64,000 nucleotides of DNA from Amoebophrya sp. A120 (Eukaryota > Protista > Dinoflagellata). The DNA lies in contig CAJINV010000001.1 of NCBI GenBank assembly GCA_905178155.1, positions 5,243,994-5,307,993 on the forward strand. Direction: 5' to 3'. Positions 13,564 through 53,270 of this stretch are shown here, piece after piece; positions within the stretch are counted from its first letter, which is position 1, and every line of letters starts with the position of its first letter. A model generated the notes under the pieces. That model ran no database searches. It was not told where the DNA came from and saw only the letters and a program-made list of their open reading frames with translations. The position numbers and the translations under genes are program-made.

Positions 13564-14528
13564 TCAGACAGCGGCGGCAGGTTCGCCTTCTCCGGCCTGG
13601 AATACTAGGAAAAAAGGTCATCATCTCACTTCACCCAAAAAATGCAAATAATTCCAAGTAAATCCGGAATGCAAGCGCTGGCTCCAAGCATATGCAGTAG
13701 AAGCGATTCCTCTACTTTTTTGCGGAGCGATTCCTTTTTCTTTGCAAAAGATTGTGCTGGAACATGCAAATTTTTCACTCGAGCCGAAGAAATTTGTTCG
13801 GGGTTGACAGTAGGACGAAAACCGGTCTCCATTTGGTAAAACGCCTGCCATTATCGCATCAAAGTCGATCGGCGTGAACGGAACATTCTGTCCCTTTGCC
13901 ATGCGTCCTGAAATGATGTTCATATGCGGGCTCTGGCCGTTTCGTGTCTGTCCACCTTTATTTCGGTTGTAAACTTCGAGGGCATCCGTAATCGTCATGT
14001 GATCATACTTCTTGTCCCGCGTCACCACCGGGGCTCCGCAAATCGTACCCTGAAATAAGTATATGATTGATTTGTATTTTGGAAACGCACCATGCAGCTA
14101 CGATTCATGCTTCCGAGTGGCACTGCGAGCCTGAGAGAGGTGCCTGAACTTCCGGGAAAAGTAGATGATAACGCCCACAGCAGTGGCTCGCTGCCCATAC
14201 TGAGTGATCAAGCGAGCGAGAAGCAGGACCAAAAGCAATGACCCGAATTCGAAACGATATATTTATGACCACAGCAACTAACCAAACGATCAGTAGAACC
14301 ATCGCAAATTTGCGAAAATTGAGCCGAAAAGCGGGTCTGCACCGAGCGGAAGCAATTGAGATATACCGCGTCAAGCTGCGCTCTTCCCGTTGCCTGGGCG
14401 ATGCGATCCCGAAACTCGCCAACCGTCATAGTATCAATGTTGATTTCTAGTTCTGTGCTAGCTCCGGCCGGCTTGATCTTCACTACGCGTCCTCCTGCTG
14501 GTCCGGAAGAGGACGCCGACGTGAGCAT
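13564..14528 (-). CDS. Ubiquitin-like (beta-grasp) small protein, family member 1, multi-exon
   Basis: VVKIKPAGASTELEINIDTMTVGEFRDRIAQATG resembles ubiquitin beta1-beta2-alpha1, and DHMTITDALEVYN resembles DGRTLSDYN. A GT-AG splice gives C-terminal DFDAIMAGAGEGEPAAAV*. Start and signal peptide are uncertain. Confidence 0.5.
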
Positions 14529-16412
14529 GAGCCCAATGACATCCCAGTCAAGAAACGCGATGAATCCAGCACAGAATTTGTATAAGTCTTGCTACGCCTC
14601 TCGGTAATAAGAGCATTCATCGTTGCGTGCACAATGGAAAATCAGCTCCTCACCTGGTGTACACTCGCTTGTCCTATCCATCTATTCTATTGGAAAATTT
14701 CTTCCAACTCAAGCGCAACATGCATCGGGCTCGGGCCAGGTACATGAACTAAAAAAGTGCGTTTCTGTGATGGACGCATCAGCATCAGATACACTGTGCG
14801 TACTGGGTCGTGGGAGCGAAACAGAGCAAAGCCGCACAGAAAAGCGCGAGCACCGCCTGTCGCAAGTAGCCTCGGAAAGCCTGCATCCCGTCGGTGTGTG
14901 TGGGTGTGTGGCCGAGGCGCTTCTCACGAAACCCGGATAGCTGGTGGAGGAGGAGGGAGATTGATTGTCCACAGAAAGGCTTCAAGGTGCAGGCTATTCG
15001 TCCACGCGCTGCGCCTGGTAGATTATACACAACTCCGCGATGGTGGAATTGCTGCGGTAATCACAAGGAGATAATGTACTGAATGGACGAATTTTAGAGA
15101 GAATGAACTTTAGTGGTGTGATACACAAAGCCGTACGTTTTGTTTTTGTTCAGGCTCGAATACGAGAGAATCTCAGAAGGAAGGCGGTCTTTTTCACCAG
15201 CAACGGCGTTGCTTGTCTGTAGTTGCCTCTGCTGGAGTTAGAATTCCACATTTCCCCGTGTTGCAAGCGAACAAAAGGCTATCGCATCTGTATCTTCTCA
15301 TGAATATGCAAGAGCATCAAGACGCGTCAAAACACAATGATGATGAAAATGAATTGTAACGATGAAGGCAGCGATCTTGCTAAGGAAGACGAGGATGATC
15401 GACGGTACCTGGATCTTCTTTCGGAAAAAACTAAGATCTCAGGAGCAGTAAGAGGACCAGGTCTTCTTTGTCTTTCAGTAAGTACACGTACACGTAGGTA
15501 CTGGAGAAAAAAAAACTTCTTTCTGATCCTGGATAGCGGGATCTTTTCCTGATTAATTCACTTACGAGAGAGGACTGATACCTGACCATGATCCTCATCC
15601 TCTAGCACTACTCGCTTCAATCAGACGTCGACCTCGTGGCAACGCACAGGCAGTTGCGACTGCCCACGAAAAAACAACCATAGGAAGGCACACGCTACGG
15701 CTACCTCCCAATGCCTATGAAACCATCTGCTCGTGGATCTTCGATGATGGCATTTTCCTACTCTTTATCATTTTGGTAGTTCCGAGTCGTCGAGCAGCCG
15801 GCGCAGCGAAAAAACCGTTCCTCCGGCCACGGACCGGCTGATCTCACAAAAACAGTGCTCCACACTGTATTACAATGCCAATGCGTACAGTTGCCACGTC
15901 TTTTTTCGAAAAAAGAACCGTTATCGATACTTATCCATAGACACGTGGCACTCGGTAGCTCTAAGTTTTCAACACCGTGCTGTCCTGTGAGCGCGTGCAC
16001 CAACGTGTCCAAGTGTTTCCATTATCCTCCCGGCTATCATATCCGACGAGAAGCAGAGACAAGTCCATACAACCTGCGAAATTATAATTATTTATTGTTG
16101 CACTAGGAGCATTAACTTGTCCGAGCAGCAGGTCAGCCTAGCTCCGCTGCATCGCAAAAATACCCGCTCGACAAGCTTCTTTTTCCCTATGCCTGCAAAA
16201 AGTGATCAAGAGCATGTCAAAAAAAAGGCAGAAGCTGGCGTCACTCAACTGGTTTCACTACAAGATTGACTGGCTCCTGGGTCTGCGAGCACAAACGCCC
16301 TTGTTGGGTTCAAGTATAACTCAAATTTGCAGACTGCCACCGGTAACAAATACCTTCTTTCCGATCCCGAGTCAGAATCACAGTCCTTGTCCGGATCTGT
16401 AAGCTGGCTACT

Positions 16413-19392
16413 TCACCCTTCCTGCTCAAACTGAAAGTCCGGGAGCGGCACCAGATCACCGTGCGGGAAGAGCGTGGCGAGTGGGCCCGAGTACTCCGCG
16501 GCTATGGTCATTTGCCGCTGCGCCTGTTCCGCCACGTTCCTCGCGGCGGGCGGCAGCTCATCGAGAAACCGGCCACTGGTGGCCGCCAGCATCCCCGTTG
16601 TTCGGATGAACTCCTCGATGCGCTTGTCGACCTCTGTCAGCTTCTCCGGGTCGCCGCGATGGCTGTCGCCGCCGTCCTCCTCCGCGTCCCCCGGTCCGCC
16701 CTCGTCAACATCCATCGGACCTTCATTGCCGGGCCCGGGAGACGAACCTCCCCCGGGAGAGGAACCTCCCCCTGCTGTGTTGCTGCCCCCGCCAGTTTCC
16801 TGAGTGTCGCCTCCCGGCGGACCAGCAGAGTCACCATTGTTTTCCTGAGTAGGTGGTTCTGGACCGCTGTGACCGTCGCCTGCAAAATTGTCAAGTAGGT
16901 AAATTGTCTTCATTTACGGTTGAAATTTTTCATCCGATTTCCACATGCGCACTTATCAATTTTCCATAAAATAATAACGAGTCGGGCTACAACGCTGGTG
17001 CTCTTCCAAATAAAGCGAGAGCGCGTCTCTGCGAACATTTGAACATGCCAAAATCAATCACGTAGATCTAGTTTGAGCTTCCGCTGCCGCCCCTACTGCC
17101 AGCTGGGTCCCTGTGAACTGCCTTAAGTACTGAAGTACCTCCGGCCACATTCGTGTTCGTGCTGTCTCCGCCAGCAGTGCCGGGTTGTCCTCCACCAGGG
17201 GCAGGGGGCGGCGACACCACGCTGTCCGTAGCAGGTACATCCCTCGGAGGTGAGCTTTCGCCCTCTCCCGGCTCGTCAACATCGTCATCATCGTCAGCCT
17301 CGTCGCCCGTGATTTCCTCGCCGGTTTCCTCGGTATACTCGTAAAATATTGTGTATCCAATAAGCTCCTTGTTCCGAAAGACATGTTTTATTTGCAAAGC
17401 CGGCTGATCCTGCATCAGTCTGCCACGAGCGCAGGAACGCTTGCAACTGCAAGTAGATTGACACGCAAGATGCAAGCACGAATGCAAAAGTATTGAAAAC
17501 ACAACTTTTTGTTTCTGCGTGGTACTCGTCCACAATAATCCAATCCTCACGCTCATCACTGTAGACCAGACGGGCGCGCCCCGAACTTCCGGAGGAAGAA
17601 ACAGCCATGCACATGGGCTGCGCTGCCGTTCCCGGCCGCGGCAGTTTCTGGCGGAATGGATCGATCAGCAAGCTGACAAGCTCCTTCTTCCGACTATTCA
17701 TACGACCCTGCGTTCTTGCACCACGCCGGGTACCACCACCCGCACCGCTGCGATCGGCGCGCAGAAATCCTGGTTGCCGCCGCGCGCTGCCGGGACGCCG
17801 CGCAAGCATCATCATCGGTCTCGCCCCGTCCCCGCCCTGGTGAGCTCCCGCATTTCGCGGACCAAGCAGTTCCCGCGCCAGCTGACGCAGCAAAAGTGCG
17901 AGATCGAGTACCTGGTAGATCTCGTGCTGCGAAAAACAATGTCCGCGCACGTGCGTGAAACCCGATAGCAGGACCGGAGACCGCAGGTTTTCCGCCCCCG
18001 GCTCGGTCGCCTGCGACGGATCGCGGAATTCGCCGTTCGGAAGCGAGAGAAGGCGGAGCGTGACCCGTGGAAGTAGCTCGCGCGTCGACGGCGCCCAGTG
18101 TGACACATGCCCTCTGCCGTACCACACATCCTGCCAGGCGGGAACGAGAAGCGACTCGAGCATGTCCAGCACGAAGGGAAACCAGGTGTTCCGCGTCCAC
18201 TCGTACTTCAACTTCTGGCTACGAGCGTCGGGGACGTCTGCTGGACGGACCATCATAATCGCCATGTAGTCGGGATTCTTCTCAATGTCGTCCTCCCACG
18301 AAGTGGTCTATCCCGGTGGGGAAAAAAACACATTTTTCCTTCCTGCTCCCGAACTCGGGCGGGCACTGGTGTCGTGATTATTTCAAACAGTTTTTATCAC
18401 AAGTGACGGTTGTCACCTGAGCATGTAGTGGAAGAACTTCTTCTGTCGTCAATTATGACACGAAACCCGATATTACTTCTTCATAAAAGGTGATAGAGAT
18501 TGGGCAAGCATCGGGCTATTTGAAATAAGTTAGTAGCCTGATGCTTGCCCAACCGCTCGTGATGACATCCATCAGCAAGACCGGAGCGCCGCTCCGGGAG
18601 CGGGAATTTCAAATGTGTAATTTTTCAAACTACATAAGAAGGCCGTCTGGTACAAGCGCTGGGCCGCTATCAGCTTTCGGACAGGCTGAATGTCTGTTGT
18701 GATGCTATCCTAACAAAAAAAGTATTTCTCAGCGACAGACAAAAAGTGGCCACGTGTAGACGTGTTCCTATCCAATCGAGGCTTGCATTTGCAGTTGTGC
18801 ATGCACGCTCTACAAATAAAAGCAACTGACACCGCGGAAGGAGATCACGGACAAACTGCAAGTGCGGGTCTTGATCTATCATGCTCACGTGGATAGAAAC
18901 TTGGGCTGCAAAAATGTAGACCTGATGCAATATTTTGTTAGCATAGGTCCCGGCCGAAGGGTCCCCTCGCTGATTAGTGGCGGCGAGGACCGCGTCTGCT
19001 GCTGGAACTGGTTGCACCATTCGTGTCACTGCGGCAAAAAGAAGGGCCAGGTCAGACTGAAAAAAGTGCATTTTCTGGCTGTCCGGAGCCATTCCGTGGT
19101 CGTGCCACTTGCTCGCGGCCTCCAGCACCGCCGTCGACGCCACGCGCTCCGGATTCGGACACAGCACTCCGGTCTCCGGGTTGGGTGCGACTCGGGCTTC
19201 CTCCACCTTTGCGAATGCGGCTTCCAGAATCTCCAAGCGAACCTGCATGGTGCCGCTGTCAGGACGACCAGGAGGCGCGGCAGGAACGGCGCCTGTGGCT
19301 GTGCCGAAAATGCTCGTCCGCAAATAACCAAAGCGGCTGGAGGCCTGGACGCCAACCGCGGCCGCGAAACACAACACCTCGCGGCTTCGCAT
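16413..19392 (-). CDS. Putative secreted hypothetical protein, multi-exon, with acidic and Gly/Pro-rich C-terminal segments
   Basis: N-terminus MRSREVLCFAAAVGVQASS. Long GC-rich ORFs at 18670-19431, 17294-18265, 17068-17340 and 16413-16913. No recognisable family. Confidence 0.5.
18500..18552. repeat. 19-bp inverted repeat (hairpin, 15-nt loop) in a probable intron
   Basis: ttgggcaagcatcgggcta ... tagcctgatgcttgcccaa, one mismatch. Confidence 0.85.
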
Positions 19393-21313
19393 TCTCGCTT
19401 TCTGCGATTGCCAGTTCTGGTCTGAAGGCACAGGAGGGGGCTCGAATCGATGCTGCGCCGCAAAGGTAGTGAAAATGAGTTGGGCTATGGAAAAATCTGC
19501 TCGCGACTTCGAAACGACGGATGAAGAATCGAGACCGACCTCGATGGATTGATTTTTAGATCGTATCTAAACAAGATTTAGACGGTCAGAAAGATATAGA
19601 TTCCTCGTGGTGGAAAAATGTCAATGTGCGGTTTTCTCTTCTACTTTACTCAATCAAGGAATTCTTCTACAATTGTAGGTAGTTGTTCACTGAAAGAACA
19701 ACTTGTGACACAGCAGGGAAATGAACTAGAAAAAGCTGCGTGGTTTGGGACTGAGTTGAATACACGACCTTGTGCCGGCATCATAAGGTATGGCAAGGCG
19801 ACAGCGAGTATCTATCAATCACAACTTGTTTCAACTGCATGCTCAACCGCCTAGCAGCCGGCGCTTCAACACACTGAGCTCCTCGACCCAGCTGATCTTG
19901 GTTATCGCAAAGCACCGCCACCGCTATGAACTTGTTACAGTTACGGTCTCGATGCTTACATAAGAAACTCACGAGATGGAGAGGAACGAACGCAACGCTA
20001 TGAAAGTACAACCATTGAGACCTCTACTTCCAGGGATCTTGAGGTGGATCTTGATCTTCTATGCGGAACTTGCACGAAAACAAAGCTCATCGATCCGGGA
20101 TCACGGCAGCAAGATCTCGGTTCGCCATCAGTCTAATAGGGTGTCTTCATAGTCACTACTTCTACTAACAACCGCACGTATACCACATCCTGCTTGTGGT
20201 GGCGAACTCTATAGCACATCTAGTTCTTGGCGAAAAGTGCAAACATTACAGAAAAAAGGGAAGCCATTACCATATCGGTATAATGATGCGAATCGCAACA
20301 AAGTCGTAGTTCGTTTTCAATAATGTCTTTCTCGTCTGATCTTCAACTGCCCGTGCTGGTGTGTAAGCAGCTTCAGCCTCGAGGGCCTGCGCTAAACGAG
20401 CACATAGTGACAAATCCGCACGCAGCTGAAGCAGCTGAATGGCGTCTTTTGACTTTTTCATTTTCTGTATGTACTTGCACAGCTTAAGTTCTGTGTTCAG
20501 GTCTCCATAACGTTGATTCTCTGCTGCGCCGCAATCGCAGTTGCAAAATACTGATCGTGGTTCGCGCGGGCAGGCTTCACTTTTTCTGCACGAACAGCCT
20601 TTCCTAATTGGCTAGCACACTGTCCAACCTACGTGATACATCGCAAAACTTACCAATGACCTTGTTGACGTCCACGCCTGTGAATGCATGAGTCAACGAC
20701 ACTCCGCAGAGAATGAGAAAAGCACATGCTCGTGTAGATATGCAAGCGGCCGAGGCCGATTCGACAAACGGCGCAGCTGTAATTTTTGCTCGTCATGAGG
20801 AACGCGTCGAGCTAGTAAAGACTCATGCAAGCGCAGGCCTCTTGTCATTGTCATTTCATTACTGCATTCTCATCTATCATATGGACCTCGCCAGCCAACA
20901 GATTCGCGCCGTACCCGTATGCTCGTAAAGCCGATCTGCAATTTCACATCTTGGACTCAGAATTCGTCTGGGAAGTTGAGATCGCTTTTGAAATGGTGCT
21001 TTTCTTTATCAAGCCGAAAATGGAACTGCCACCCCTCCGCAATCTCCGAGTCACCACGAAAAATTTTGCGGACATCAAAAGTTGTTACTCTGTCTTACTT
21101 CAAGGTTGCACGGGGGGCCGCCGTATCTCCCCACCCTTTCTCATGCGCTTTTCTTTGCTTAATACGCAATAGTCCTGCTTCACGGGCCGGGTACACATCA
21201 TGACCTTGAGCGTGTCCAGCTCTCAGGAGTGAGGGGCGGCAAATACGATACATATTTTCTCTTGCGGGTCTGCACATGACAATGCACGATCTAGAGAGCA
21301 GGATGAGGTGGGG

Positions 21314-23504
21314 TTACATATCTTCGTGTTGATAAATGGCCATTTCCCCAACAGCTCTCCAATACGACGCGTCTGCCTTCTCCCCTGCTGCCTCTGCTCC
21401 TGAGGCGATCCACCTGAAGATGTTCTTCGTATGCCGAGAGTAAAGGAAAGTTGCCAGCTGCTCTTTGCAGTGGAGGGTGCCAGTCTACGACCAAAAATTC
21501 ACCATAATTTAAGAATATGTCACTCTCACGACTTCGAGCTTGATTCAATGTGATCGAGCAGGGTGGCATAAGAGTCCTGGTTGAAATCGCAATTCTATGT
21601 ACCTGCGCCACAGTCTCTGCGCCTCAGGATCGTAGGGGGTGTCGACAGTCCCGGCGTCAGGGTGCACCAAGAATTCCCACAAGCGGTCAATCCAGCCGTG
21701 GAGAGAGTAATGCTGGCACTATCCCATGCAAACATGCGTGTGATGGAACTCGTTCCGAGAGCCAACTTAGACTTTAATCGGCCAAAACAACAAAGTTTCA
21801 GTGATGGCTTGCAACCTTTAGTCGGACCGCTGTAAATGGAAAACTTTCGACTTTCACCACAGCAGATACATACTTACTCCTAGTTGTATCTGTTTTTCAG
21901 TAAAAGTAACAAGGTCATCCAAAAACGAATGGCGTCTTGGGGCGCTTTTCGATGTCGCACTCGCACACTTGCGAGCCTGGTAGGCCATGCGCAGAAGTAC
22001 TACTACAAGATCGTTGCACCGGATAGCCAATTACCCTCGGAAATCTTGAAACAGCACCTCCCGCCTGTTTTGTAGGATGAGCGCTTTCCTACCGATGTAC
22101 TCAAGGAAGAAGACACATGCCATCGTGTCATATTATGGTAAAAATTTCTAACTCAGAAGCCTTGCACACTGGGGCTTGAATGAGGCAAATCCATTCCTGG
22201 CTCAGAAAGCTAACTAGTGCAGGACTCATCATGCGGCCGTCCACAAAACAGTTTGCTACAACACTACTCCCTAGCTGGATTAGAGTTAGTATCAATCTTA
22301 CTGGTGCCGCTGTTGTTTATGTGTGCGTGGAACGTCTTGAATTTTGCATAAGCCTGGGGCTGCTCCGGGAGGCGGACCTGCAACGCGTTCGGATCCTTGT
22401 AAATATTCCAGCCTTCAGGCACCGAAAACCCATCCGGAATCATTATCTTGAAGTGCTGTAAAGGCAGTAGTGGCACATTCATTGCAGGGTGGAGAAAAGT
22501 CAGTCTACGCAAGCTCAAAAGAAAAATGCTATAGTATTTCTACTCCGTGCGGACCATGACGATATTCATTTTCTGCATCATCTGCAACCCCGCAGCGGGA
22601 AAAAAGCAAGCTGAAGTCATCGCTATTCAAAGGTACAAACATGTTCCTGCGTGCATCAGTGAGTCCGTGCAAACCTTTATACCATCAACAGTCCGTGGTA
22701 GTTTTGATAAGGGAAGCTGTGTGTCGTCGAGAAGGTCTTCTGGTCGGGCAGGAAGTCTACCAACAAATTTCCGTCATCCGTGACTTTGGCATGGAGCGCT
22801 ATGCATTCGCAAAACTATCATGACACCACGCCTGGGCATACACACGCTGCAACAATTTCTAATGATCCATCAGCACCTTCAATACAAGCAGACAGAGCAA
22901 ATCTGCAGCTGTTGCCAAGTATTTATATATAGAAAAGGAAAACTGGCACGTTGACCGTGACAGCGCCAGGTTCCAACATGTGAGATTGTTTTGCCCCTGA
23001 TAAATTCGGGCTCGTCACCATTGTCCCACTGCGCATTGATGTAACCTTCCACCCAACGCTCCAAGGCGGCCTGTATTTTCAATATTTTTTCTTCAACGGG
23101 TGGATATCATATTCATAGATACCGATCGTTGCAATTAGGAAAACAAAGTCCAACGTCGACGAGCAAGATGTGCTAGTGTAAGTATGTCTGTCACTCACGA
23201 ACAGGAATTCACGAGAAGCAGCATGTGGAAGCAAAGCAGCTGCGAAAATGGCTGTGCAACGCTTGGATCAACAGACCTTCCAGACGTAAGAATTACTATT
23301 CAAAAGGACGTCAGAATTACTATTCAAAATAGTTATGACTTCCATTGCATCATCTACAACAAAGTTCCACCATGCCATGTTGCAGTATCAAATTGAACAC
23401 ACTCACACTTACTGTACCTTTTTGTCTCCGTCCCCGCCGCGAAGAGTGACCGCCAAGGTTTGCGCCGCAAGGCAGCACGCCAAAAACAGGGTCTGCTTCA
23501 TCAT
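21314..23504 (-). CDS. Signal-peptide-bearing divergent E2 (UBC-fold) protein, paralog A, multi-exon
   Basis: Signal peptide MMKQTLFLACCLAAQTLA. Exons: ALERWVEGY..EPEF; VTDDGNLLVDFLPDQ..YQNYHG; FKIMIPDGFSVPEGW..QPQAYAKFKTFHAHINN; HYSLHGWIDRLWEFLVHPDAGTVDTPYDPEAQRLWR; ..SYWRAVGEMA. The exon carrying the catalytic Cys was not resolved. Confidence 0.65.
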
Positions 23505-25474
23505 CCTTGTCGGCTGAGAACCGTGGTTTGGACTGGACCACAATGGTATCCTCGGATACGGACGCGCCGGAGATGCGTGAGTAGAAAAGAAGTGGCGCAA
23601 TACAAGACGCCTGCTTTCGCTTGGGTTTGCCGATTCGTAGATCTTCTACTTCGAACCGATGGTCAATGTGTTTCACGAATACACGTCACGAATACACGCG
23701 CAAGAACTTGCTCTGGTATCGTAAAACCTTTAGAGGGATCAGCGGAAGGATTTTTTTCGAAATGTATGTATTCTTTATTTCTGTTTTGTATCTAAGTTGC
23801 GAACTAGAGTGTCGTCCAGCTGCTGTCTTTACTCTGATGAGGATGTACAGAGCCTCCAAACCTGATTTGCCTGAAAATCGTTATGGAATGAGATGTCCAC
23901 CGGGTGCCTGCATGATCAGTACGGTTGAAACAGAAAACGAGGGATCCGTGCCCGGAAGGAAGAAACAGCACAGTGAGCACATGAAAAGGATCCTATGCCA
24001 TCTTCACCTCTATCATCAAGAAAACCACGCGACGCCAGCAGTGGATCGTTCTTCTTTGCAAAAACGTCGAGCCCTTTATTGCTGGCTTCCCAACGCATCT
24101 CCTGAACTTCTAAAAAGAACGCACAGTGGCACAGCATGGATTGTGGTGATGTTGTAGGTCTACGACACAAGAAACGGATCATCTTTCAGTCCCAAATCGA
24201 GAGGAGCCACGCACACAGCGCTGATCTTCCGCTGACCATAGCGGTTTGATCTTCCGTTAGGACGAGCGAGAGCGTGGTCTTTCAGCACAGTTACAACACT
24301 TCAGGCTCGATCCAGATCCACTTTGGCAGACTACATCAATATGAACTTGCGACTACCCATCAGATCCTCTTTCTAGGGACGCCATTCCTCGTGTCTGAAG
24401 ATTTCATATAACAACCGTCAGCTCACCTTGGGAATGGATCTGCGTGCCTTCGCTGCTGGTCTTCTTGTCTTGTGAACCAGGATCCCAAGACATCAAAGCG
24501 CAAAAAAAAGTTCCGGTACGAGCGAACTCGGATCCAGTGAACAGTCTCCCTCGGCCAGTACTCCAGGACTGACGGTTCTACTTATTCGTCCACGCAAAGT
24601 CGTGGACCAATCGTGTACAAACAAACGAAAGGCAAAGTACATTGTCCACGTAAATCTACCGAATAATTACCACCGCGCTGCAGTCGACTAGCGGCAGCTG
24701 AGGGAAGAGTAAAATTCAGTGAAAGTAGATAGAAATTGTATACTATTAGTTGTAGAACAAAGTGAAAACATTGTATATCATTGGCGCGCCATCAACCCGT
24801 CCTCAGTTCTTTTTAGGCGCCAAGTTTTAGCAGCGTCTCTGAACGAGCATGTGCGCACGTGTGAAACGTTTCTCGCGAACGGACTGCTGACGCCCCAGAG
24901 ACGGTACGTACCAGTACTGGTTCGTTGTCGTGAACCAGCCATCATCTTACAGAAAATTCCATGCCGGACCTGATAGTGGCGCCCGACGGAAACTCGATCT
25001 CCTCGCCGAATTACATCAAATTTCAGGATAATTCAACAACCTCTGGACCTGAACCAGAAGCTGGATAGAAATAGAAAAGCCTCCTGCTGCTCCGCATGAG
25101 AAACGAACTCAATTCAGAGGGGCAGGCTCCGTCGATGCCCGGACAGACAAGTAAGTGCAGTTACCTCTTCCGTGCGCAGAGGACAGAAGAAGTGAAACAA
25201 TATATAATTCGAAGACAGAGTGATGTGCCGCAGCCGTGCTCGTCTCGCGACCGCGCTACTCGATCGTGTCCGTGAACCTCAGGTCTTTCCTGTAGCGATT
25301 TGCAATGCAAAAATGTCTGAGTCTGGAAAAGTGAAGAGTTTGTCACGCAGGGCTTGCATGCCCCAGAAGGTTTGGAATGCAAAGTTTCAGTTTCTTTGCA
25401 ACGCCACCCAGCATGACAAATTGTCTCTCTGCGTGGGCAAGAGGGGAACGGAAGCGGAACGAAGCTCTTACTGC

Positions 25475-27186
25475 TCATGCATGACAGAATTCTAGTTGAT
25501 TTCTGTGTACTTGAAAAAGAGCATCATAGGTTGGAACTCTTGTTCCAGACCCAGACACCTTTGCAATGCATAACTGATGGCTCGCAGCCATTTGTCCAAC
25601 TGCTTTCCAATAACTCGGATCGCCCTGGGTACTCCACTTTTTCCACAAATCTTGGGCAGCTCTGTCGTAGGGCGTCTCAACCTTTCCCGCATCGGGAGTT
25701 ACAAGAAAAACCCATAACCGCTCAATCCAACCCGCGAGAGAGTAGTGGGGCCATGTATCATCCATAATCCTAAAACAGCAATGCCCGTCGCCACCTGTTG
25801 TATTGAATAAAAAGTATGGAAATTGGAAAGTCCGAAATGGAACAACTCGTTTGCTCGATGAAAAGCAGCAAATTAAACCACTCAGCTATCTTCATCTCGA
25901 ACGGTTTCTACCAGATCTCAGGTCACACGCCAGATTCATGAGATCCAGAGTCGGTGTCATCAATAGAATCTTTTTTCGGCATGCAAAGGAAAATTTTGCA
26001 TGAATACAGCAACATTTAGACTAACCAAAAATGTGAAGATGTAGACTAACCTGCTTTGTTGTTGATATTTGGATGGAAGGTTTTGTATTTGGCGTACGCA
26101 ACCGGCTGAGTCTTCATCTTTACTTTCAAAGACTGTCTGTCTTCAAGGATGCTCCAACCCTCCGGGACGAAGAAGTCGGGGTCCCTGATCACAATCTTGA
26201 AATGCTGTGTAGAGGTTTGCGATGACGAAATGTAAACTCTTCTTCTGTGACAGTAACTCGGGCATGTGGAATTTCTATATCGTCTACCTTTTCGATAACT
26301 AGCATTGAAAACAAGAATCAAGCTACGGCATCCCTGCGGATCATACGGTCGAAGCTGAAAGCGCGGCCACTAGTACAACCGCCATATGCATACCAACGAA
26401 ACCACACCACAAAAAAAATCTTACGCAATCCAATTGTATGAAAACCTCAATCTATATTACCATGTAAATCCCGGAGTAGTTCTCGTATGGCAGCTTTACA
26501 AACGAAATTTCCATGGCAGTTCCATATCTGAAGTCGGACTGAACACACAAATTGCTTAAGTACCCTACTTAGTCTAGCCCGAGCAGGCGGAAGACTACTA
26601 GATACCTGACAGTTAGTCCGTGCGACGAATGCAATGGCGCGCATGCCGACTACTATTGTGCCTGAAACGGCTATAATTTTTCCGCCACAGATCCTACTTG
26701 TGCCCTGCACAGGAAGGTAACCACCTATTTCAGGAAAGGAGCTGCCAAGAGAAACTTCAATGGGATACAACCCGCCGCGTCGCGTCAAATTCTTGCTGGT
26801 CCGGCTCGAATGCCACCAGCAAGTTTCCGTCTTCCGTAACCTTCGCACGAAATGTGGGCTCGGGCTCCCCGTTTTCCACCTCCTCCCATTTTTTTCCGAT
26901 GTAACCTTCGATGAACCGTTCCAAGCTTGCCTGAGTTTCATGTAAGTTGGAGCTTATCATCAGTTTTGCAAACCGGAAGCTGCACACCAAAAGTGCAATT
27001 GCTTCATCCTTCATCTCCACATGTAGTCATCATGAACAGTAATACGTAGCACAGCAAAGCACGTATTGGTTGCGAGGGGAAAGTAGCTACCTTCTTCTCC
27101 GACAGTGATTGGTTTTTCAGAGAAAGCCCGGCCGCAGACCCAAAGGCAAAGATACCCACTACCGACGTAATCAAACCGCGTCTCAT
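25475..27186 (-). CDS. Signal-peptide-bearing divergent E2 ubiquitin-conjugating-like enzyme, paralog B, multi-exon
   Basis: Signal peptide MRRGLITSVVGIFAFGSAAG. SLERFIEGY..EPTFRAKVTEDGNLL; FKIVIRDPDFFVPEGW..QPVAYAKYKTFHPNINNKAG spliced (GT-AG) to GDGHCCFRIMDDTWPHYSL..LVTPDAGKVETPYDRAAQDLWK. The HPN motif and downstream Cys match the UBC active site. Confidence 0.75.
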
Positions 27187-40600: not shown

Positions 40601-41184
40601 TCGACCGAGGAGCGCGCAGAGACGTGCTCCACGACGGTTTCTTCCCCGGAGATCTCCCCGCGCGGCGCGGAGCCAGCACGGCTACTTTGCAAAAAAGACA
40701 AAGCCGCTGGTAACTGGTTGCACATCAGCCCGAAGCAACGGCTCGTCAACGACGACTGCCGGGACCCCGAGAGAGAGGGCATGGACCGAGGGGACGTTGC
40801 CGCCCCGCGGGACATCACAGCTGCGCTCGACTCCGGTGGTAGAAACTGATTCAAGCCGAAGTCGTGGGCTTGCATGGGGGCCGTCGGCTCGGGCTCCACC
40901 AGCGTTAGAGTCGCACATCCCTGCAGCATCGCATTTTTTGCTGTCTCGAAAGCAAGCCCGTTCGTCCCGATGATGGCGATGTGCGTCCGCTGCAGCGATT
41001 CCGTAGCCGCTCGGCCGAGCATTGCATTTTGCCGGGAGAAAAGGTCACTTTCCTCCAGCTGGGCCTGCTGCTGCGGCACCACTCCCGCAGCCGCCGCCGC
41101 GAGCGCCGACCGACCCACGTGCAGCAGCACACAGGCGCCGATGGCGGCGCGTACCCGGAGGAATCGAGATGGAAAATCTGGCAT
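34613..41184 (-). CDS. UBA1: UBA1-type E1 ubiquitin-activating enzyme with an N-terminal signal-peptide-like segment, multi-exon, with large insertions
   Basis: Inactive adenylation half: LFSRQNAMLG..HIAIIGTNGLAFETAKNAMLQG..RLQELNP. Active half: LPGVGAVGNE..DPDVIEVSNLSRQLLFR..PKA; DVVLSALDTWDGRYYIE..C..P..NCGT. Catalytic Cys: PDPNVRACQLRQFP..CVHWAREVFE. C-terminal FEYDKD..HLDFVYSAANLRA..IAGRI. N-terminus MPDFPSRFLRVRAAIGACVLLHVGRSALA. GT-AG intron at 39367-39665. Confidence 0.9.
35776..35985 (-). mobile_element. Inverted-repeat-bounded (introner-like) non-canonical intron in the E1 gene
   Basis: Left end agtgcacaactccccctcccccttatttggatg versus reverse complement of the right end agtgcacaactcgcccccctcgtccccctcatttgtgatg. 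It lies exactly where the E1 reading frame shifts (EAVYG to SHTVDL). Confidence 0.7.
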
Positions 41185-42516: not shown

Positions 42517-43513
42517 TCAGTCGCGTGACACCCCTCCGCGCTGCTGTGCAACTTGCTCGTCGAGGTCTCTGTCTGGCGGCTCATCTCCTTCGCCTGCAGC
42601 TGCTAGGGCGTCGTCGAAGTTCCTGTATTTCAAGATAGGTAGAAGCGGATTGTAGAGCTCATGCACCACCAACCCGCAGCAGGCCGAAAATGAATACCTA
42701 GTTGATCCATACTTTTTCCAGTGCCTGGCACCGCCTTTTAAGACCTGCAGCGAGAGGTACACCGGCTTCATCGAAAACTTCTCGTGGTTATGCAAAAGCA
42801 AATGCCGCTCACCTGAATACACGCGCCTCTTGCATATACATTTACATACGACAATCAAATAAGGGATTACGAAGTAAGTATGTGCAGTACACAATGATGG
42901 GCGCGAGTTTTCCTTGGCTTTGCCACTTCCTCACCACTTGCGACAGTCCCGGGTGTGAGTTCATGTGGCTTTGGATCGTGCGGCTCAAGTCGGTCCTAAT
43001 GCTGTAAAACTTCCCAGTCTGATGATCGTATAAAAACGGCTGACCTGCGATCGTAGCCCTGCGTTGCAAAAATGTAGCCATCTAATTTATGTATCATCAG
43101 AAAAGAATCCGGCAGTCGCTCCCGGCTGAAAAGAGATGATCACGAGCCCAAAAAACCCAAAACCAACACTCATGCTATAAGGGAAGATACTTAGATTCTG
43201 AATTTCTACTTACCCATGCATGGCACACAAACACAGCCACCATCAGTGCTCAGCAAAAGCATCACGAAGATCTTCCGAAAAATAAACGGTACCGCATGTA
43301 GAAGCTGTTCCGCTTCGTACTGCCCTTTGCGTCCGCTTCTGCGCATAACCAGTTATACACCTCTTGCATCGTTCCGGATTCGAAGCTGAAGCTCTTCTGA
43401 GAAGCAATAAAACCGCCTGCTTTGAACGTAATCGTGGTCGCGCTTGCGAGTCCACAGTACGGTAGGAGCATGAATAACATGCGCAAGACCGTCCCATAGC
43501 ATCGGCCGCACAT
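42517..43513 (-). CDS. Secreted ubiquitin-like small protein, family member 3, ending in RGG plus a 4-residue tail
   Basis: Signal peptide MCGRCYGTVLRMLFMLLPYCGLASA. TTITFKAGGFIASQKSFSFESGTMQEVYNWL; RTDLSRTIQSHM; RNFDDALAAAGEGDEPP..QQRGGVSRD*. Confidence 0.5.
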
Positions 43514-44749: not shown

Positions 44750-46549
44750 CTAGGCCGGTTCCTCGCGCCTACGCTTCCCGGCTGGTGCGCGCAGTTCCTC
44801 TGCCACCCCTTCCAAAGCAGCGGCAATCGAGTCGTTGTGATTCCTGTTTTCGTCAATGTGAAAATGAACGTGGACTGTCCGTCCTGAGCGGTGGGTCCCG
44901 AGTCGTGATCGAGATCGTTTGTGTTATGGTTCCTCGAAGTATATCATCATGAATATTTTTTCTTTTTTAACAAGTAGGATATGTGTAAACTATGATGCGA
45001 TGGGCTTGAAAATAGCGTTTCTACAAGGAAAAGTAAAAGCAAAAGCTCAAGGTCCTCGATCATAGAAAACAAATTAGTACACGATGAGGATAGGCGGCAT
45101 CTTTCCCCCTCTAAAGTTGCTGACGACCGGTGCTAGCTGCCGTTCCCTTTCCATGTGCTGCTTTATGGTCAGACTCAGGTCGGTTTTCAGGTGGGCGTTG
45201 TCGTGTCCACATGAAACGCACTAATGCCCACAAGATTCACATACTCACAAAAGTTGCCCCTTTCTCTGTAATGCCTTCCGTGAGGATCCGACGGGTGGAG
45301 CTGATTGATCACACCCAAGTGATCGACATTCGTCGTACCATCTATGATTACTACGCTGACAGTGACATTCACACCAAAAAGTACACATACATACCAAAGA
45401 AGCAGTACTAAGAGAAAGCAGAATGAAAGCATGATCAATCAGAGATCAGTGCGCTTTCCAGAATGATAAAACTCCGATAGTGTTGGGGTCGAACAGAAAC
45501 GGCGCTCCGCGGCACGTCACGCTGAATTATGAGCAGTTGCGATTATTATATGTCTTGACTCCTTTTCCACGACAAGTTCAACTCCAACAGAGAATGAAAG
45601 CATGCGTTGTATAGACAAAAAAAACAACTCAGACAACAGAAATTTCATATCTTACGACAAAAAAAATCCGTTGGCTTTATCCTGTGTAAGAACGTCCCCG
45701 CGATAGAGCCATCAAGGTGCAACCTTTACGAAACAGATCCAGAAGTTGGGCGCGTTTTCAGCGACAAACCTGGCCTCATACATTCATAGTGTACTGACGG
45801 GTTGGTCGTCTTTTCCATATACAGAGCCAGTTGCATATTGTGGTTCGAGCATATACAGATTCCCTCCTTTGTACAGGACTACGACTAGCACGTTTCTGCT
45901 ATGGGGAGACGCCGTTCTCAACATGTAAGATCTGCACGACAAATCAGCTCAGAGATTGGGACGTCCTTATATTACATAGTTCCTGGTGGTCTGGCGCGTG
46001 GCGAGTTGCCGCTCCACCTCCCCTTTGATCCACTGGAAAACCTCCCCCATGGCAATATCGTCGAAAAACCTTGGACTGCTGCGAGCCGTTTACTACCTAG
46101 TCTTGTTGCGAGCGCACACACTACACCTAGGGAGAGTCCCGTGAGGACAGGTGCTAGGCGGCAGTGCTTCATGAAGTACTCCAGCCGCCCTTCCCCGTGC
46201 TGCATCGCCGATTTTGAATCAAGATGCACGACACAGTACCGGTGAAAATGGCAGTCTGTACAAATAGAAATACCAAATCTCTTCTCCCATAAATCTTCAT
46301 CCGATGCAAATACACGAAGTACCGTTCGGCAAATCATGACCCTTACAAGAGAACATAGTAAGCTCAGACGCCCAGCAGTATTTCTCTCGTTCGATACGTG
46401 TTGGTTTCGTAAATGAAGGTCTCCTCAGGTTTCGCCGCGAGAAAGCCGCCGCCGATGAATTTGATCGGTGTCGCACACACGCCTGGCACCTGCTCGTGGA
46501 GCATCGCAAGGATGACCGACGGCAGGAGCTTCTTCAAGAGGGCCCGCAT
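44750..46549 (-). CDS. Secreted ubiquitin-like small protein, family member 4, multi-exon
   Basis: Signal peptide MRALLKKLLPSVILAMLHEQVPGVCA. TPIKFIGGGFLAAKPEETFIYE; FFDDIAMGEVFQWIKGEV; NRNHNDSIAAALEG..KRRREEPA*. Closest to member 3. Confidence 0.45.
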
Positions 46550-48110: not shown

Positions 48111-50836
48111 TTACTGCCCCCACAAGCTCCAGCCTCGCCCTTGCTGGGGCTCCTGGTCTGCGTTCGCCCGCGGTACGTCCGGTCCAGACAGTATCGAGGT
48201 TGCGTGAATCCCGGCGATATTCACATAAATGGTGGGGGGCTCGCCTCCTCGCGGTCCCTCAGGCTGGCGGGCAGACGGGTTCGGGAAGCCTCTCCGTTGC
48301 ACGTCTGGGAGCGCAGCCTCGTGAAACTTCGGGAGGGGGTTGCGACCAACCGTGGAGGGCGGGTACCACTTTTGATCCATGGCCTGTTCCGGCTCCACCA
48401 ACGGCGACACCGCTCGGTCGACAATCTGCCAAAGCCGCACCTGCACGGGGCGTTGAAGAGATATTCTAGTCCGAATTCACAAAGTTGGCACGAGCATGAA
48501 CATCATGCCGCGAACAGCTACTCCGGATCCAATACGATGAAAAGATCGTTCATCCGCGCAGCACTTTTCTCCGAGCCAGACCACATCATTCAAAAAATTT
48601 TACTTATGGATGCATATGATTTACCTGAAACATAGCACACACGGCCTCACGCGCAAACTGCGGATTCCACAGTTGGTCCTGCTGGCTGTGCGGGACGTTT
48701 CCATCACGTGTCGCGTAAAGCCACAACGCTCCTGTTGCGGTAAGCGGAAAGTCGCCCCCAATCGACGACGGTCGGTACATGCCTCCGCCACGCTGCCCGC
48801 CCCCGCAGCGGTCGTGGTAGCGCTGTTCGTACGTCGAGGACTGCCCCCCGCCCATGGTGCCGCCTTGACCGTTCTTCTTGCCCTTCCTTTGTTTCTTGTC
48901 GGAGGTGGACGAACTAGGCCAAAAACCTATTGAGATGGAAAGTTCTCAACATGGCCTTGACTATTAAGTGTTTCTGTCAAGAATCCAATTACGAAGGCAG
49001 TGGTTTCTTCACGCACCTGCTTAAGTGCTTCAGCAGAAGACATTCATTGATTTTGATTGAGATCCTAGTAAATATTAGTGAAGCGAACGCAATAGATGAG
49101 CAGACCGGAAAAACATCGCTACTATTAAATGGAGCAAAGTAAACTGCTCCCAAGAAGAGATAAGTACACGAGTTTCCTGCGTCATCATCATTGCTCGAAC
49201 AACTTTCGTGGCCGTCAGAACTGCCACGGCTGCCCGGGGTGTCGACGATCTGCAAGTCACTCGGAAGTGGCAGCTTTATCAGGTGCGGAAGTTCATCCCC
49301 GACTTCGAACGAGGCCTGAGCGTGATCGGTGGGAATCTTGTTCGCAACCGCATCTCCCTGTTCATACACCCTTTGCTCCGGCTTGTAAAACTGCGGAGCG
49401 AACGCGCTGGCGCTGGCGAACACAGACGGTTCTTCGATTTGTTGTTGCTCCCAGAGCCTCCGCATCTCCTCTTCCGTGCGCAACCCCCAAAACTTCTTGA
49501 AGTTTTCGTACGAGCTCCACTTCAGTACCTTGGGATTGCCAAGCTTGTCCCGCATATTCGGGACGGTCCACTGGCGCACCTGGTCCTCCCACTTGTTCCC
49601 CCGCTGCCGCATGTGCTGGTCCCACGCCTCCTTCATCCTGATTTCAAATTTCAAACGATCATGAAGGGCCAGATGAAAACAGAAAGAAAAAGAAACTAGT
49701 GGTGCCATCTATCATTCACATTTTCAGTACGGTGCCAACACATTTTACGATTTGCTTGATAGATTGTAAGAAGACTGGCATTGAAAAAAAAATTCTATCA
49801 TTACGTATGTATGAGCTTCTTGTCAACAGACAAAATATGTAGTACTGGGCCTTCATGGGCTCTTGCAATTGCGTGGTCACCCAGCCTTCAAACACATTCA
49901 TAAGCATGTCGTGGCGTTCAAGGTTGGTCTCGGAGCCTCGCGGTTTCCACAGCAACCAGTCAGCGACGTGTTGCCGCAACTGCTCCCCCGTGTACGGGCG
50001 TCCGGTCTCGTGGTTATTGATTCGTGCGCGGATCGCCAGCTGGTGCGCAGCGGAATGAAACCTGTGATACACGCGATGTTGTTAGACCTCCTTGACGGTC
50101 ATTCTGCAAAATGGGTGCGCAGATGTCTAGTACAGCCTAGCACAAAAGCCCGCACACTGCTCCTTCCTCATACGTAGACACGAGAGGGAGTTTGAGTGGT
50201 AGTCGTTCGCAAAACGAAGAATTACAGCTATAATAAATCAGTAGTAAATAGTGACAAATTCACTAATTTTCATCAACCTTATTTACGAGTGAGATCGACT
50301 GCACTTCAAGAACGCATCTGAAGAAGGTATGAAGCGACACTGCCGACGAAATTCAGTCGGGTTCTGGCTTCTTTAGGAGAGCGAGTAACTGTTTGGCATA
50401 CTCTTTGCGTTCCTTCTTGTAAGTAGCAGATGGTCTGTGTGTCAACTGACCACCACCGGAACTTGAATTTTTCCGACGAAATTCAACAAGAAATGCCACA
50501 CTACTTCTTCAGCTGCTTAAAAATATACCAACAGTTTCCGCCCCCTCCACATTCGCGTGTTTCGTAGTTCCTGGTATATGGACTAGAATGAGATGATCCG
50601 CCTCGACCTCGGCCCGAATTCGAAGCGCCGCGATTCTGCTGCCGAGCGACCATCTCATCCACGACTAGCTCCAGTTTCCCCAGGGCAAGTCGTTCTACCT
50701 CGACCCTATTGACTGGCTGACCGAGTCCATTCGCTTCCTGCAGTTCTTGCCGTGCTTCCTCCAGATACGCTTGGTACTCGTCGGGGTAGGTTTGGCGCAG
50801 GTGCAGGAAGCGCAGCTCCTCCGGGTCAACATCCAT
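48111..50836 (-). CDS. OTU-like cysteine protease (putative deubiquitinase/Ubl protease), multi-exon; both ends uncertain
   Basis: GT-AG intron 50062-50528 joins YETRECGGGGNCW to FHSAAHQL..EQLRQHVADWL (OTU Cys box xDGNCLFxAxxxQL). Later AREAVCAMFQVRLWQI and a His-box-like PTIYVNIAGIHATSI. Confidence 0.6.
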
Positions 50837-51154
50837 GGGCGCGCTGTGGTCCAGCGTATCGTCCAGAAAAATGCTACAGCACGTGCTGCGTAGGCTGCGC
50901 TGCAGAGGCAGAGTTCGGGCAAATGCAGAAGCAGTGTTAGCTTGCTTGAGATAGGAGCGAACATACCCTCAACGTACATGTTTGTGCGTCGGAATGGTCT
51001 GCTCCACTCTTTCTCTTTCGAGCAACGAATCAGATTGATAAATCAATATAGGCTTCATACAAGACCCTACAATACAGGAAATTGTAATTGATCGTATCCA
51101 TAACGGAGACATCGACATTTGCACCGCCAGCGGCATGAGAAATACATCATCAGG

Positions 51155-53270
51155 CTAGCGCTTTTCTGTGTGATATCTTCGTGCTCCTGTCTCGCGAGAT
51201 GACACGCCTCCAGCCGCAGGCCGTCCCTGTCCTCCAAGCGCAGGCGTGGCGACTATTTGACCAGCACCAGTGACACGGTCATATTCATACCCATATCCAC
51301 CCATCAGCTCGTCGCCCTGACCCGTGTTAGAGTTTTGAGTTTTTAGTATTCCGCCAGGCACAGAGGTTGGCCTGTTCGCGACAAAATGTGTGTACCAAGG
51401 CCCTGGGTGAACTTCTAATCTTGTGCCGAACAACATGTTGAAGCTCCAGAAGGTCGGGGTGTAAGGAATACCGCTATCTAATTGAAAATGGTCCCTGAAG
51501 CAACTGCAAATGATCTGTTGTCATGCTTAGCAGAATGAGTTTCGCACTTAGAATGAAAATTCTCGAAGCATGTGCCGGCTATGCAAAAGCGCCATCCGAT
51601 TCCCGACAACACTAGCTTACGTGCAGCACTTCTTGTGTAGTTTATTCCGCGACCACGCCGTTTCGTGGAATGACAGTCCTCAAATGCGACCAGCTACTCA
51701 GCACCATTTTCATCGCCATAAGCAACACTCGTCGGCGGTGGAATCTGATACGAGCGAAGGAAAGAAACGTAATAGGCATGCTGGTGCCTCAAGTAGCAAT
51801 CGCTGACTCTGAGCTTCAGGCAGCACCGATTTAACATCTCGGAAAATTTGTAGAACGCTGCGCTGATGCGCAATACCGCAGGCGTCCTCAAGGAACCTCG
51901 ACGACGACCCTACGTATCCACATGCCGGTGACCTCCAAGCCCCGGCCAGAAATGCTCGCATCTAGAACCTGCGGACGAACTATGGTCTGGGCACCGCCCT
52001 TTGTAACCCGGCGGCCCCCACCACTCACATAAACCGCCATCAAACACTTGCAGTGAGCACTTTGTTCTTCTTCCCTCATCGAGCCGAGCTCATTGAGAAT
52101 TAACATAGGCACGAAGAAAGGAAATGAGAAACTTGTGAAGGGCTAATCAAAACAGAATGACTTCTAGGATTGTATACTTGTCCGGTGCCCGTATGGCCTT
52201 GCGGTGCCACGACCTGAACACCAGCACCTTGTAGGGTCGGGTTCGAGTGGGCCGTATTCGTAAGGAACGCGTGCCCGGTTCCTGCATGGTGGCCTGGCGG
52301 AGTTACACCGCGTCTATGGGAATGACGGCGCAAACACGAACAAGGGCTGCCTCGTATATCTATGTATGTAGTGCATCAATGTCCGAAGCGGAGGTCCACC
52401 ACGGAGAATCAATGGTGATGTTCTTCATCCGGATTCCAATTTCACACTTCTCAGTACGGCTACTTCTGTATTTGTATAACTGGGTAGTTATCATGCCATA
52501 TAACTCAAAGCAGAGTGTTTGCCCGATGTACTGGCATATGCCCAATTCCGACCAGAAGGCGATCTGGGGTCGCGAGGACCACGACTCGCCTCCACCCCTC
52601 CAGGCTGCAGAAGTAACAAGTACACCACCGTGGCCGAAGCCATGTACTTAGCCGTCGCCCCGTGCCACATCGTTTTGATCGCCGAGGTGAAGAAAGTTCG
52701 TCCCTCGGCGTCGGTAAATCTCGGTCGGTGCGTTCCTCGTGGTCTGAGACAGTACGGAGCTCCCCAGTACTGAACACAAAAATTCGTAGTTTTTAGTAGC
52801 AAGAAGTACAGAAATGACAATTGATAGGGCGTAAGTCCCGGTGGGCCTCACTTCCCTCTAAAGTTAGATGACCGAAACTCCGGACTCTGAAAGTGGCAGT
52901 GCTCGAACGCGCTTTTGCTTGATACTGGTAAGTAAAGGAGTCGTGTGTATTACCTGCTCTAGGATGTTCTTCTTTTCTTGTACAATGAATCGGTAAGTGA
53001 GGAGACCTAGTAGACCGCGGCAGATGAGTAATGTGCTCACTACCCTGACTGCCCTATGTCCCAACTTTGACTGGAGATTTATGGAAAGAAAAAGCGACTG
53101 TAAGCGTCCTCGCAGAAGTGGATACAAAGACGACCGAGAACTACGTCTGCATGTTGAAATCTGAATGACGATTACATTCGGATCTTGCTACTTGGAGACG
53201 AAAAATGAAAAGCTGCATCACTCGCCAGCAGCACCGCCACCGGCTATAGCGAGGAGGAGGTACATGTGTT
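51155..53270 (-). CDS. Hypothetical multi-exon protein, possible H-Y-E class (PARP-like) ADP-ribosyltransferase domain
   Basis: TMWHGAT..SGRNWAYASTSGKHSALSY..CKCLMAVYVSGG resembles the HG[ST]..G.Y.S/T..A..Y..C.V.G layout. Short hydrophobic start MYLLLAIAGGGAAG near 53265. Confidence 0.35.

Follow-up and report, generated by a model that had tools for sequence, protein, structure and literature searches.

A clustered set of leader-bearing E1, E2, candidate modifier and OTU-like genes in the dinoflagellate parasite Amoebophrya sp. A120

Ubiquitin-type cascades are normally cytosolic or nuclear. Described systems close to the locus analyzed here include (i) the SELMA arm, comprising s_Uba1, s_Ubc (e.g., TGME49_295990), PUBL and the apicoplast deubiquitinase, all components of which bear leaders (PMC12412216; PMC5487736; PMC10795397), and (ii) the bacterial Bil and Bub operons, which unite an E1, an E2 and one or more beta-grasp proteins, also in tandem, with a peptidase in each locus (PMC11601596, PMC11601603). 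The present locus lies in a 64,000-nucleotide stretch of the Amoebophrya sp. A120 genome (contig CAJINV010000001.1, positions 5,243,994 to 5,307,993), hereafter the window, in which about 40 kb hold genes for an E1 activating enzyme, three E2 conjugating enzymes, four small proteins (A-D) of putative ubiquitin-like (Ubl) character and an OTU-like open reading frame (ORF), all on the minus strand, as are the other features of the window given below. The source is confirmed by the longest E1 exon, which matches a 1915-residue A120 protein at 100%. A120 develops within the nucleus of its dinoflagellate host (PMC7793755, PMC9478091), and both a plastid (PMC7789003; PMC10624901) and SELMA (PMC7789003) are reported to be absent from it.

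The clustering of these genes, proposed in a first-pass annotation made from the DNA letters, is borne out by the gene coordinates and by the gene model numbers, which run near-consecutively from 3479 to 3488 for the eight genes encoding the E1, the E2s and A-D. These near-consecutive numbers, together with a hydrophobic segment ahead of the domain in each gene, argue that the cluster is not due to chance. The placement of all genes on one strand is correct as a fact and unremarkable as a feature, minus-strand gene runs and many non-canonical introns being the norm in the A120 genome (PMC7789003). Spliced contigs obtained from X3 and X4, two runs on a single sample that are presumed to be RNA and have no DNA run as comparison, join the E1, the OTU-like ORF, A and B into open frames, i.e., all four genes tested; the E2 models are based on annotation and sequence. 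Taken as a whole, the earlier observation holds for the clustering and the enzymes, and in part for the kinship of the small proteins and for the Ubl and OTU labels.

The E1 gene (34208-41184; six exons; GSA120T00003482001, P0001) encodes a divergent single-chain protein of 1915 residues that is, by its sequence, an E1 of the UBA1/6/7 type, comprising tandem ThiF-like domains and an SCCH domain with its cysteine. The Pfam matches to ThiF (127 bits) and UBA_E1_SCCH (PF10585; 80 bits) both exceed the cut-off, and the Arg51 finger, the GxGxxG motif at 791, the SNLxRQ motif, the Mg-binding Asp and Cys1106 are all preserved, in agreement with the initial description of a UBA1-type E1 with intact ATP-binding and catalytic cysteine motifs. 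Both adenylation domains, inactive and active, as well as the cysteine domain can be aligned to a profile built from seven UBA1s, Cys1106 is aligned with the catalytic cysteine of UBA6, and the best matches in the PDB are UBA6 (146 bits) and UBA7 (144 bits), followed by UBA1 at 130 bits and lower. Alignment further discloses a crossover-loop insertion of ~154 residues (940-1093; 37180-37862), with exon lengths in agreement with the spliced contig, located between the adenylation domain and the catalytic Cys1106 (37143-37141); a comparison of this insertion with the small-protein domain gave no support for reading it as a further copy. At a position near the pocket for ubiquitin Arg72, the alignments place a glycine in the A120 E1, a Gln in UBA1 and a Glu in UBA6, while the Asp ending the Arg72-binding stretch is retained.

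The E1 opens with a signal-peptide-like leader of about residues 1-29 (41098-41184), recognized by hydropathy. Two spliced contigs, of 6536 nucleotides (41518-33715; X3) and 6065 nucleotides (X4), lack the introns and have an open frame again, the former running unbroken from 41518, 334 nucleotides upstream of the start codon, and across the leader; a start downstream of the leader, named beforehand as a finding that would overturn the proposal, is not what this presumed RNA contig displays. The leader is very likely translated, because no in-frame ATG stands between the preceding stop and the one at 41184, and initiation at the next Met (55), which stands behind the Arg finger, would remove that finger. 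A complex prediction of E1 residues 770-1530 with B residues 26-140, ATP and Mg scored 0.00 twice, with no alignments used and no controls folded, and weighs neither for nor against such a pairing.

The divergence of this enzyme is pronounced. A search of its core against 1.84 billion representatives returned 4908 proteins at E 0.001, and the second-best match reaches only 154 bits, so that the search brought up no close orthologue belonging to a further Amoebophrya strain; the best identity is 36%, and the terminal branch measures 3.0 changes per column. Together with the E2 and small-protein searches described below, which return only A120 proteins of one scaffold, this branch length upholds the notion of a co-diverged set. 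Pattern scans of metagenomes with E1 exon 2 gave 0 relatives among 80 pattern matches, introns weakening such scans, and a housekeeping UBA1 of A120 was absent among 20 looked-up names of the 149 matches, a check that included no genome-wide search.

In an alignment of 157 E1s, 11 besides the A120 protein carry leaders, and most of these fall in one ten-row clade that presumably represents the SELMA s_Uba1 clade described in PMC12412216, its members being mostly unnamed and no apicomplexan sequence being identified in the set. FastTree places the A120 E1 beside this leader-bearing clade with a support of 0.965, whereas the IQ-TREE mixture model, with 73 as with 30 rows, groups it with leaderless E1s (P0023, P0026 Eutreptiella, oomycete and labyrinthulid rows), with several supported branches between it and the leader-bearing clade. 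The FastTree grouping, not reproduced under the mixture model, may reflect long-branch attraction. The approximately unbiased (AU) test, for which 30 rows were used and four further long ones omitted, does not reject a SELMA grouping (p-AU 0.083). The phylogeny proposed at the outset thus yields best trees outside the leader-bearing clade while leaving the SELMA grouping unrejected, and the sequences lean towards an origin from a duplicated housekeeping-type E1. The SELMA check published for A120 covers Cdc48, Derlins and Ufd1, all of host type, and not E1, E2 or Ubl components (PMC7789003, Table S3).

The three E2 genes encode (i) E2-1, 263 residues (P0011, model 3484; 28524-30372), with a His-Pro-His motif and Cys164, where the leader would be shorter if translation began at an alternative start, 29998; (ii) E2-2, 233 residues (P0010, model 3485; 25256-27186), with an HPN motif and Cys154; and (iii) E2-3, 231 residues (P0009, model 3486; 20957-23504), with a His-Ala-His motif and Cys145. 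The catalytic cysteine is thus invariant in all three, with the full HPN in E2-2 only and His-x-His in the other two, and Cys154 is aligned with the active cysteine of Plasmodium Ubc13. E2-2 is a UBC-fold protein according to its AF2 model (predicted local distance difference test, pLDDT, 58): each of the 40 matches listed by Foldseek is an E2, as a chain or in a complex (best E 5e-4), and ranks 1-30 of the VIA search are UBC-fold entries or E2 complexes with one exception, the Hook/FTS complex (best Z 8.3, root-mean-square deviation 3.7, 146 aligned). The Pfam UQ_con match of E2-2 (E 0.0067) falls below the cut-off and the other two have none; E2-1 and E2-3 are assigned by profile search and by their identity to E2-2 (35% and 53%, respectively). 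These identities, the predicted fold and the invariant cysteine sustain the description of three mutually related UBC-fold genes. A profile built from the three E2 exons returned 3 of 77 candidates, exactly these three proteins, all from A120 and one scaffold. Scans of metagenome, viral and prokaryote contigs gave no relatives (0 of 179, 0 of 34 and 0 of 78 pattern matches, respectively), with the same weakening by introns. Two other affinities were considered and set aside: designed WD40 repeats topped a PDB profile search through summed repeats, with E2s next (E 0.06-0.95), and the fold matches to viral E2s are weaker than those to cellular ones. Helix 1 of P0009, P0010 and P0011 displays acidic or neutral residues at the positions that are basic and bind the E1 in canonical E2s, which is consistent with an altered E1-E2 interface.

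The small proteins comprise A (168 residues; P0015, model 3479; 44750-46549) and B (164 residues; P0013, model 3481; 42517-43513), both with a leader and a predicted beta-grasp-like domain and both identical to their annotated models when rebuilt from spliced joints, together with C (166 residues; P0016, model 3483; 31679-33233), a leader-bearing member of the same family known from sequence, and D (164 residues; P0014, model 3488; 13564-14886), with a leader and a ubiquitin-like domain in its ESM model; the gene models of C and D are those of the annotation. Spliced contigs support a 17-nucleotide micro-exon in gene A (45656-45672), one of whose flanking introns is non-canonical and the other canonical. 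A search for relatives retained 5 of 1907 candidates, namely A-D and P0012 (GSA120T00003497001), all from A120 and one scaffold. P0012 is a leader-bearing two-repeat paralogue of B, ~77% identical, situated nine model numbers past D on the same scaffold and beyond the left end of the window, so that the island extends past the window. A, B and C form one family, with leave-one-out scores of 51, 51 and 18 bits reached by none of 500 shuffles.

Behind the predicted domain, a tail pattern resembling Asp-x-Ile/Leu-Ala-Ala/Met-Gly ends at Gly140 in B, Gly146 in C and Gly153 in D. With Gly150 of A, these residues stand about eight positions past the last predicted strand and are candidate mature ends. 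The other candidate is an invariant glycine that precedes this strand (B 123, A 130, C 130, D 137) and is more likely structural. A also carries an internal Arg-Gly-Gly at 128-130 and a basic cluster at its C-terminus, and B an Arg-Gly-Gly at 158-160, four residues from its end. Where a family is shown, the closest structural neighbors of the ESM models for D and P0012 are mostly beta-grasp (TM 0.42-0.57), including ubiquitin, ubiquilin, FERM_N and the USP7 Ubl for D, and PB1, UBX and the SIN1 RBD for P0012; a ubiquitin-family feature match of D at 0.87 serves as a lead. A beta-grasp (ubiquitin) fold is accordingly proposed at low confidence, on the models.

The OTU-like ORF (48111-52670; 681 residues, eight exons) is joined by seven spliced joints on a 2912-nucleotide contig (53076-47657) that extends 406 nucleotides upstream of the start codon and thus includes the leader. 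It contains a cysteine box around Cys242 (50533-50531), a Trp box near 558 and a His652 box, separated by long inserts, an order matched by eye to the OTU protease pattern, and it is likely an OTU-type deubiquitinase by this sequence criterion. Residues 205-239 and 482-515 form a short repeat, 40% identical, that copies the stretch before the cysteine box, including a second cysteine. Outside the interval first annotated, a probable second OTU-like gene (5776-7772), missed at that stage, displays the three boxes in the same order and stands among M35 metalloprotease genes; its ordered three-block score of 104 is reached by none of 500 shuffles, marginally, as the best shuffle attains 103, and its single blocks are matched by 13, 2 and 345 of 1000 shuffles. 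A PDB sequence search with its cysteine exon gave no match.

Scored by an 11-residue hydropathy window, the leaders reach 1.85-2.96 in the nine cluster proteins scored and 2.22 in the OTU-like ORF, compared with 0.01-1.60 in all seven UBA1 controls and 0.52-1.25 in all three housekeeping-type neighbors. Signal-peptide-like starts had been noted for the E1, the three E2s and three Ubl-like genes; these stand, and the count rises, all four small proteins having a leader. The E1 departs from housekeeping-type E1s in that its leader, by hydropathy, precedes the first domain and lies on the spliced contig; its 48 residues overlap the 29-129 residues of the 11 other leader-bearing E1s, so that length does not separate them. 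In E2-2, E2-3, A and B the leader and the domain are about 1-12 residues apart, so that there is little space for a transit peptide. Basic clusters resembling nuclear localization signals, albeit weakly, occur in the E1, A, C and the OTU-like ORF.

The reading favored here, to which a probability of about 0.4 is assigned, is that the locus encodes a private E1-E2-modifier-protease cascade exported to act in the dinoflagellate host. The leader-bearing products would pass through the secretory pathway to the cytoplasm or nucleus of the host, with ATP at their disposal there; a protease, plausibly the OTU-like one, would trim the small proteins to the tail glycine, the weakest step of the scheme; the E1 would, as in its family, adenylate the trimmed end, load Cys1106 and pass the modifier to the E2 cysteine; the E2s would modify host proteins, either with no E3 from the locus or with one that has gone unrecognized; and the OTU-like enzymes would reverse or edit the tag. 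The crossover-loop insertion and the changed residue of the Arg72 pocket would set the preference of the E1 for private modifiers. A more specific version, put forward tentatively, holds that a complete, operon-like orthogonal system of E1, three E2s, new beta-grasp modifiers with maturation at a non-canonical glycine and OTU editors is secreted into the host nucleus and there tags and dismantles host chromatin or nuclear proteins, in its boldest form as the SELMA machinery of a lost plastid turned weapon. In the host nucleus, the site of A120 growth, the host chromosomes shrink about 3.5-fold at a stage when a membrane still surrounds the young trophont (PMC9478091). The exported orthogonal cascade of the first-pass annotation is partly supported, namely by the enzymes, the clustering, the leaders, the divergence, the leader-bearing neighbors and a parasite reported to have no plastid; export to the host, conjugation of the small proteins and a separate housekeeping UBA1 are predictions, and a SELMA grouping is not rejected (p-AU 0.083).

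A series of observations weighs against an exported private cascade. The modifier role of the small proteins would be its weakest link: none displays a terminal di-glycine or a di-glycine directly behind the last strand, the tail glycine of A stands two residues later than the common pattern, P0012 carries no glycine after either repeat, at the junction or at the end, and Pfam and PDB sequence searches gave no ubiquitin match. Of the four mutually related Ubl-like genes initially proposed, kinship holds for A, B and C and lacks sequence support for D, which scores -0.4 bits against that family (reached by 74 of 500 shuffles), and the Ubl label draws on ESM models of D and P0012 that are themselves of low confidence (pTM 0.49 and 0.31). 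All structural scores of the small proteins remain below the Atlas naming bar, and the AF2 model of B is too poor to be informative (pLDDT 45), with 0 Foldseek matches at E 0.001 and a best VIA Z of 3.9 with no beta-grasp row. Among the enzymes, Pfam and a local profile detect no ubiquitin-fold domain (UFD) in the last 426 residues of the E1 (1490-1915), which leaves its recruitment of E2s unexplained, and Pfam scans of the window recognize no E3 ligase. The OTU-like protease label is favored by an open spliced frame with three boxes in order and has no support from the Pfam OTU profile, which matches none of five single exons of the 681-residue ORF or three pieces of its paralogue. Hydropathy is unspecific, as 37 of 106 near-full-length E1s reach 1.8 in their first 40 residues, mostly through the first domain strand; the case for leaders hence rests on a segment preceding the domain start in every gene. 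A leader is, moreover, a sign of entry into the endoplasmic reticulum and not of delivery to the host, the catalytic cysteines would need to survive an oxidizing lumen, and gene neighborhood in the A120 genome has no general link to function or expression (PMC7789003).

Several of these points would be accommodated if the exported E1 and E2s charged ordinary ubiquitin, of host or parasite, and the small proteins, without being conjugated, acted like PB1 or UBX domains as adaptors or decoys: the small proteins would then need no terminal di-glycine, the P0012 repeats are joined without glycine and their model is nearest to PB1 and UBX domains, and the E1 retains the Asp ending the Arg72-binding stretch. 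This arrangement is judged rather improbable, as a near-invariant ubiquitin should not require a 154-residue crossover insertion or such divergence, the dinoflagellate host has its own E1, and a glycine-ending tail follows the domain in three of the four small proteins. Somewhat unlikely, too, is a SELMA-like translocation or sorting machine in the parasite endomembranes or the surrounding membrane, possibly a repurposed relic of plastid import. SELMA is the sole known leader-bearing E1/E2/Ubl set, with C-terminal extensions on PUBL (PMC12412216), and the FastTree support of 0.965, the AU test and the overlapping leader lengths agree with such an origin; both mixture-model trees, on the other hand, place the E1 with leaderless E1s, plastid functions are absent in A120 and its Cdc48, Der1/2 and Ufd1 are of host type (PMC7789003), and the window discloses no Derlin, Cdc48 or Ufd1 alongside its secreted-type proteases.

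Lastly, the genes could each stand alone in a rapidly evolving island that encodes secreted proteins, rather than being parts of one cascade, some of them perhaps decaying duplicates. At least five other ORFs of the window bear leaders, neighborhood is not predictive of function in this genome (PMC7789003), and tandem duplication can explain the copy numbers of the E2s and small proteins. What makes this the most improbable of the alternatives is that E1, E2, beta-grasp and OTU-like genes, all with leaders, share about eleven adjacent models, that catalytic residues are retained despite saturation elsewhere, and that splicing yields an intact frame in each of the four genes tested.

The surroundings of the cluster are rich in leader-bearing genes. 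Three tandem M35 (aspzincin-like) metalloprotease genes with leaders and HExxH-type motifs (56-982, 4058-4861 and about 10500-12325; Pfam E values 9e-7, 0.011 and 0.016) are candidate secreted proteases, and the predicted embedding among such proteases is in this sense correct, secretion being putative from hydropathy. Between E2-3 and D, a leader-bearing gene without a Pfam match (16413-19392, probably model 3487) could encode an unrecognized E3 or a substrate adaptor; besides the M35 genes, two ORFs of the window with no assigned function have leaders. The island is bounded on the right by leaderless HGPRT-like and class I/II aminotransferase genes (54025-55375, 57230-59230, 59991-61610 and 62439-63380), which provide anchors for synteny; the ORF at 63380 displays a leader and a C-terminal hydrophobic segment.

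The locus is real, unusual and apparently undescribed: the literature searched, which includes few subscription journals, contains no account of it and none of an E1-E2-modifier set that a eukaryotic parasite exports. Early infection is marked by increased expression of genes of the ubiquitin and SUMO pathways, for which a part in the transformation of host proteins has been suggested (PMC6176090); the accessible text of that paper has 0 occurrences of secretion or signal peptides, and that of PMC13693241 and PMC12005148 contains nothing specific on the locus. The accessible supplements of PMC6176090 and PMC7789003 do not contain the cluster gene numbers; they list an A120 "ubiquitin-activating enzyme E1" whose expression rises in early infection, an entry that cannot be assigned to the cluster E1 because it bears no gene number. 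No clear genetic signature for host chromosome degradation is reported in the accessible part of PMC9478091, and the present genes provide named candidates for how Amoebophrya degrades host chromosomes before engulfing them. Depending on the reading, a clustered leader-bearing set in a parasite without a plastid would represent a new effector strategy, employing a whole cascade instead of one hijacked step, a new modifier family or a plastid trace, the last in contrast with the view that the plastid left none (PMC10624901). If it is truly orthogonal, the E1/E2/modifier set would also be useful as a laboratory tool. The ecological interest is considerable too, with Amoebophrya being a major killer of bloom-forming dinoflagellates.

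Compared with the SELMA arm, the A120 set shares, besides its leaders, the C-terminal extensions of the modifiers (PMC12412216). SELMA belongs to red-lineage complex plastids, whereas A120 is plastid-less and its genes are clustered and multiplied; PUBL is reported to be clearly ubiquitin-similar and to need its di-glycine in Toxoplasma, whereas the A120 small proteins have no sequence similarity to ubiquitin; and the best tree, although not decisive, places the A120 E1 elsewhere. With the canonical cascades of UBA1, UBA6 and UBA7, their E2s and ubiquitin, FAT10 or ISG15, the A120 set has in common a single-chain E1 with inactive and active adenylation domains and SCCH, the ATP and cysteine motifs and UBC-fold E2s. 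It differs in its leaders, the 1915-residue length of the E1, the crossover insertion, the unrecognizable UFD, the clustering, E2s that are <20% identical to any solved E2 and small proteins without di-glycine.

The peptidase of the Bil and Bub operons is of the JAB type, whereas A120 combines an OTU-like peptidase with a eukaryotic UBA1-type E1, intron-rich genes and leaders, and the prokaryotic contigs yielded no E2 relatives (0 of 78). Pathogen effectors acting on host ubiquitin comprise secreted E3s, deubiquitinases, ubiquitin-extension proteins and Bacteroides BfUbb, as well as giant-virus E2s. Like the A120 set, they are parasite-made parts for the ubiquitin world of the host, the viral E2s being weak fold matches; they are, however, single components plugged into a host cascade, whereas the A120 locus brings together the activating and conjugating steps and candidate modifiers, all with leaders.

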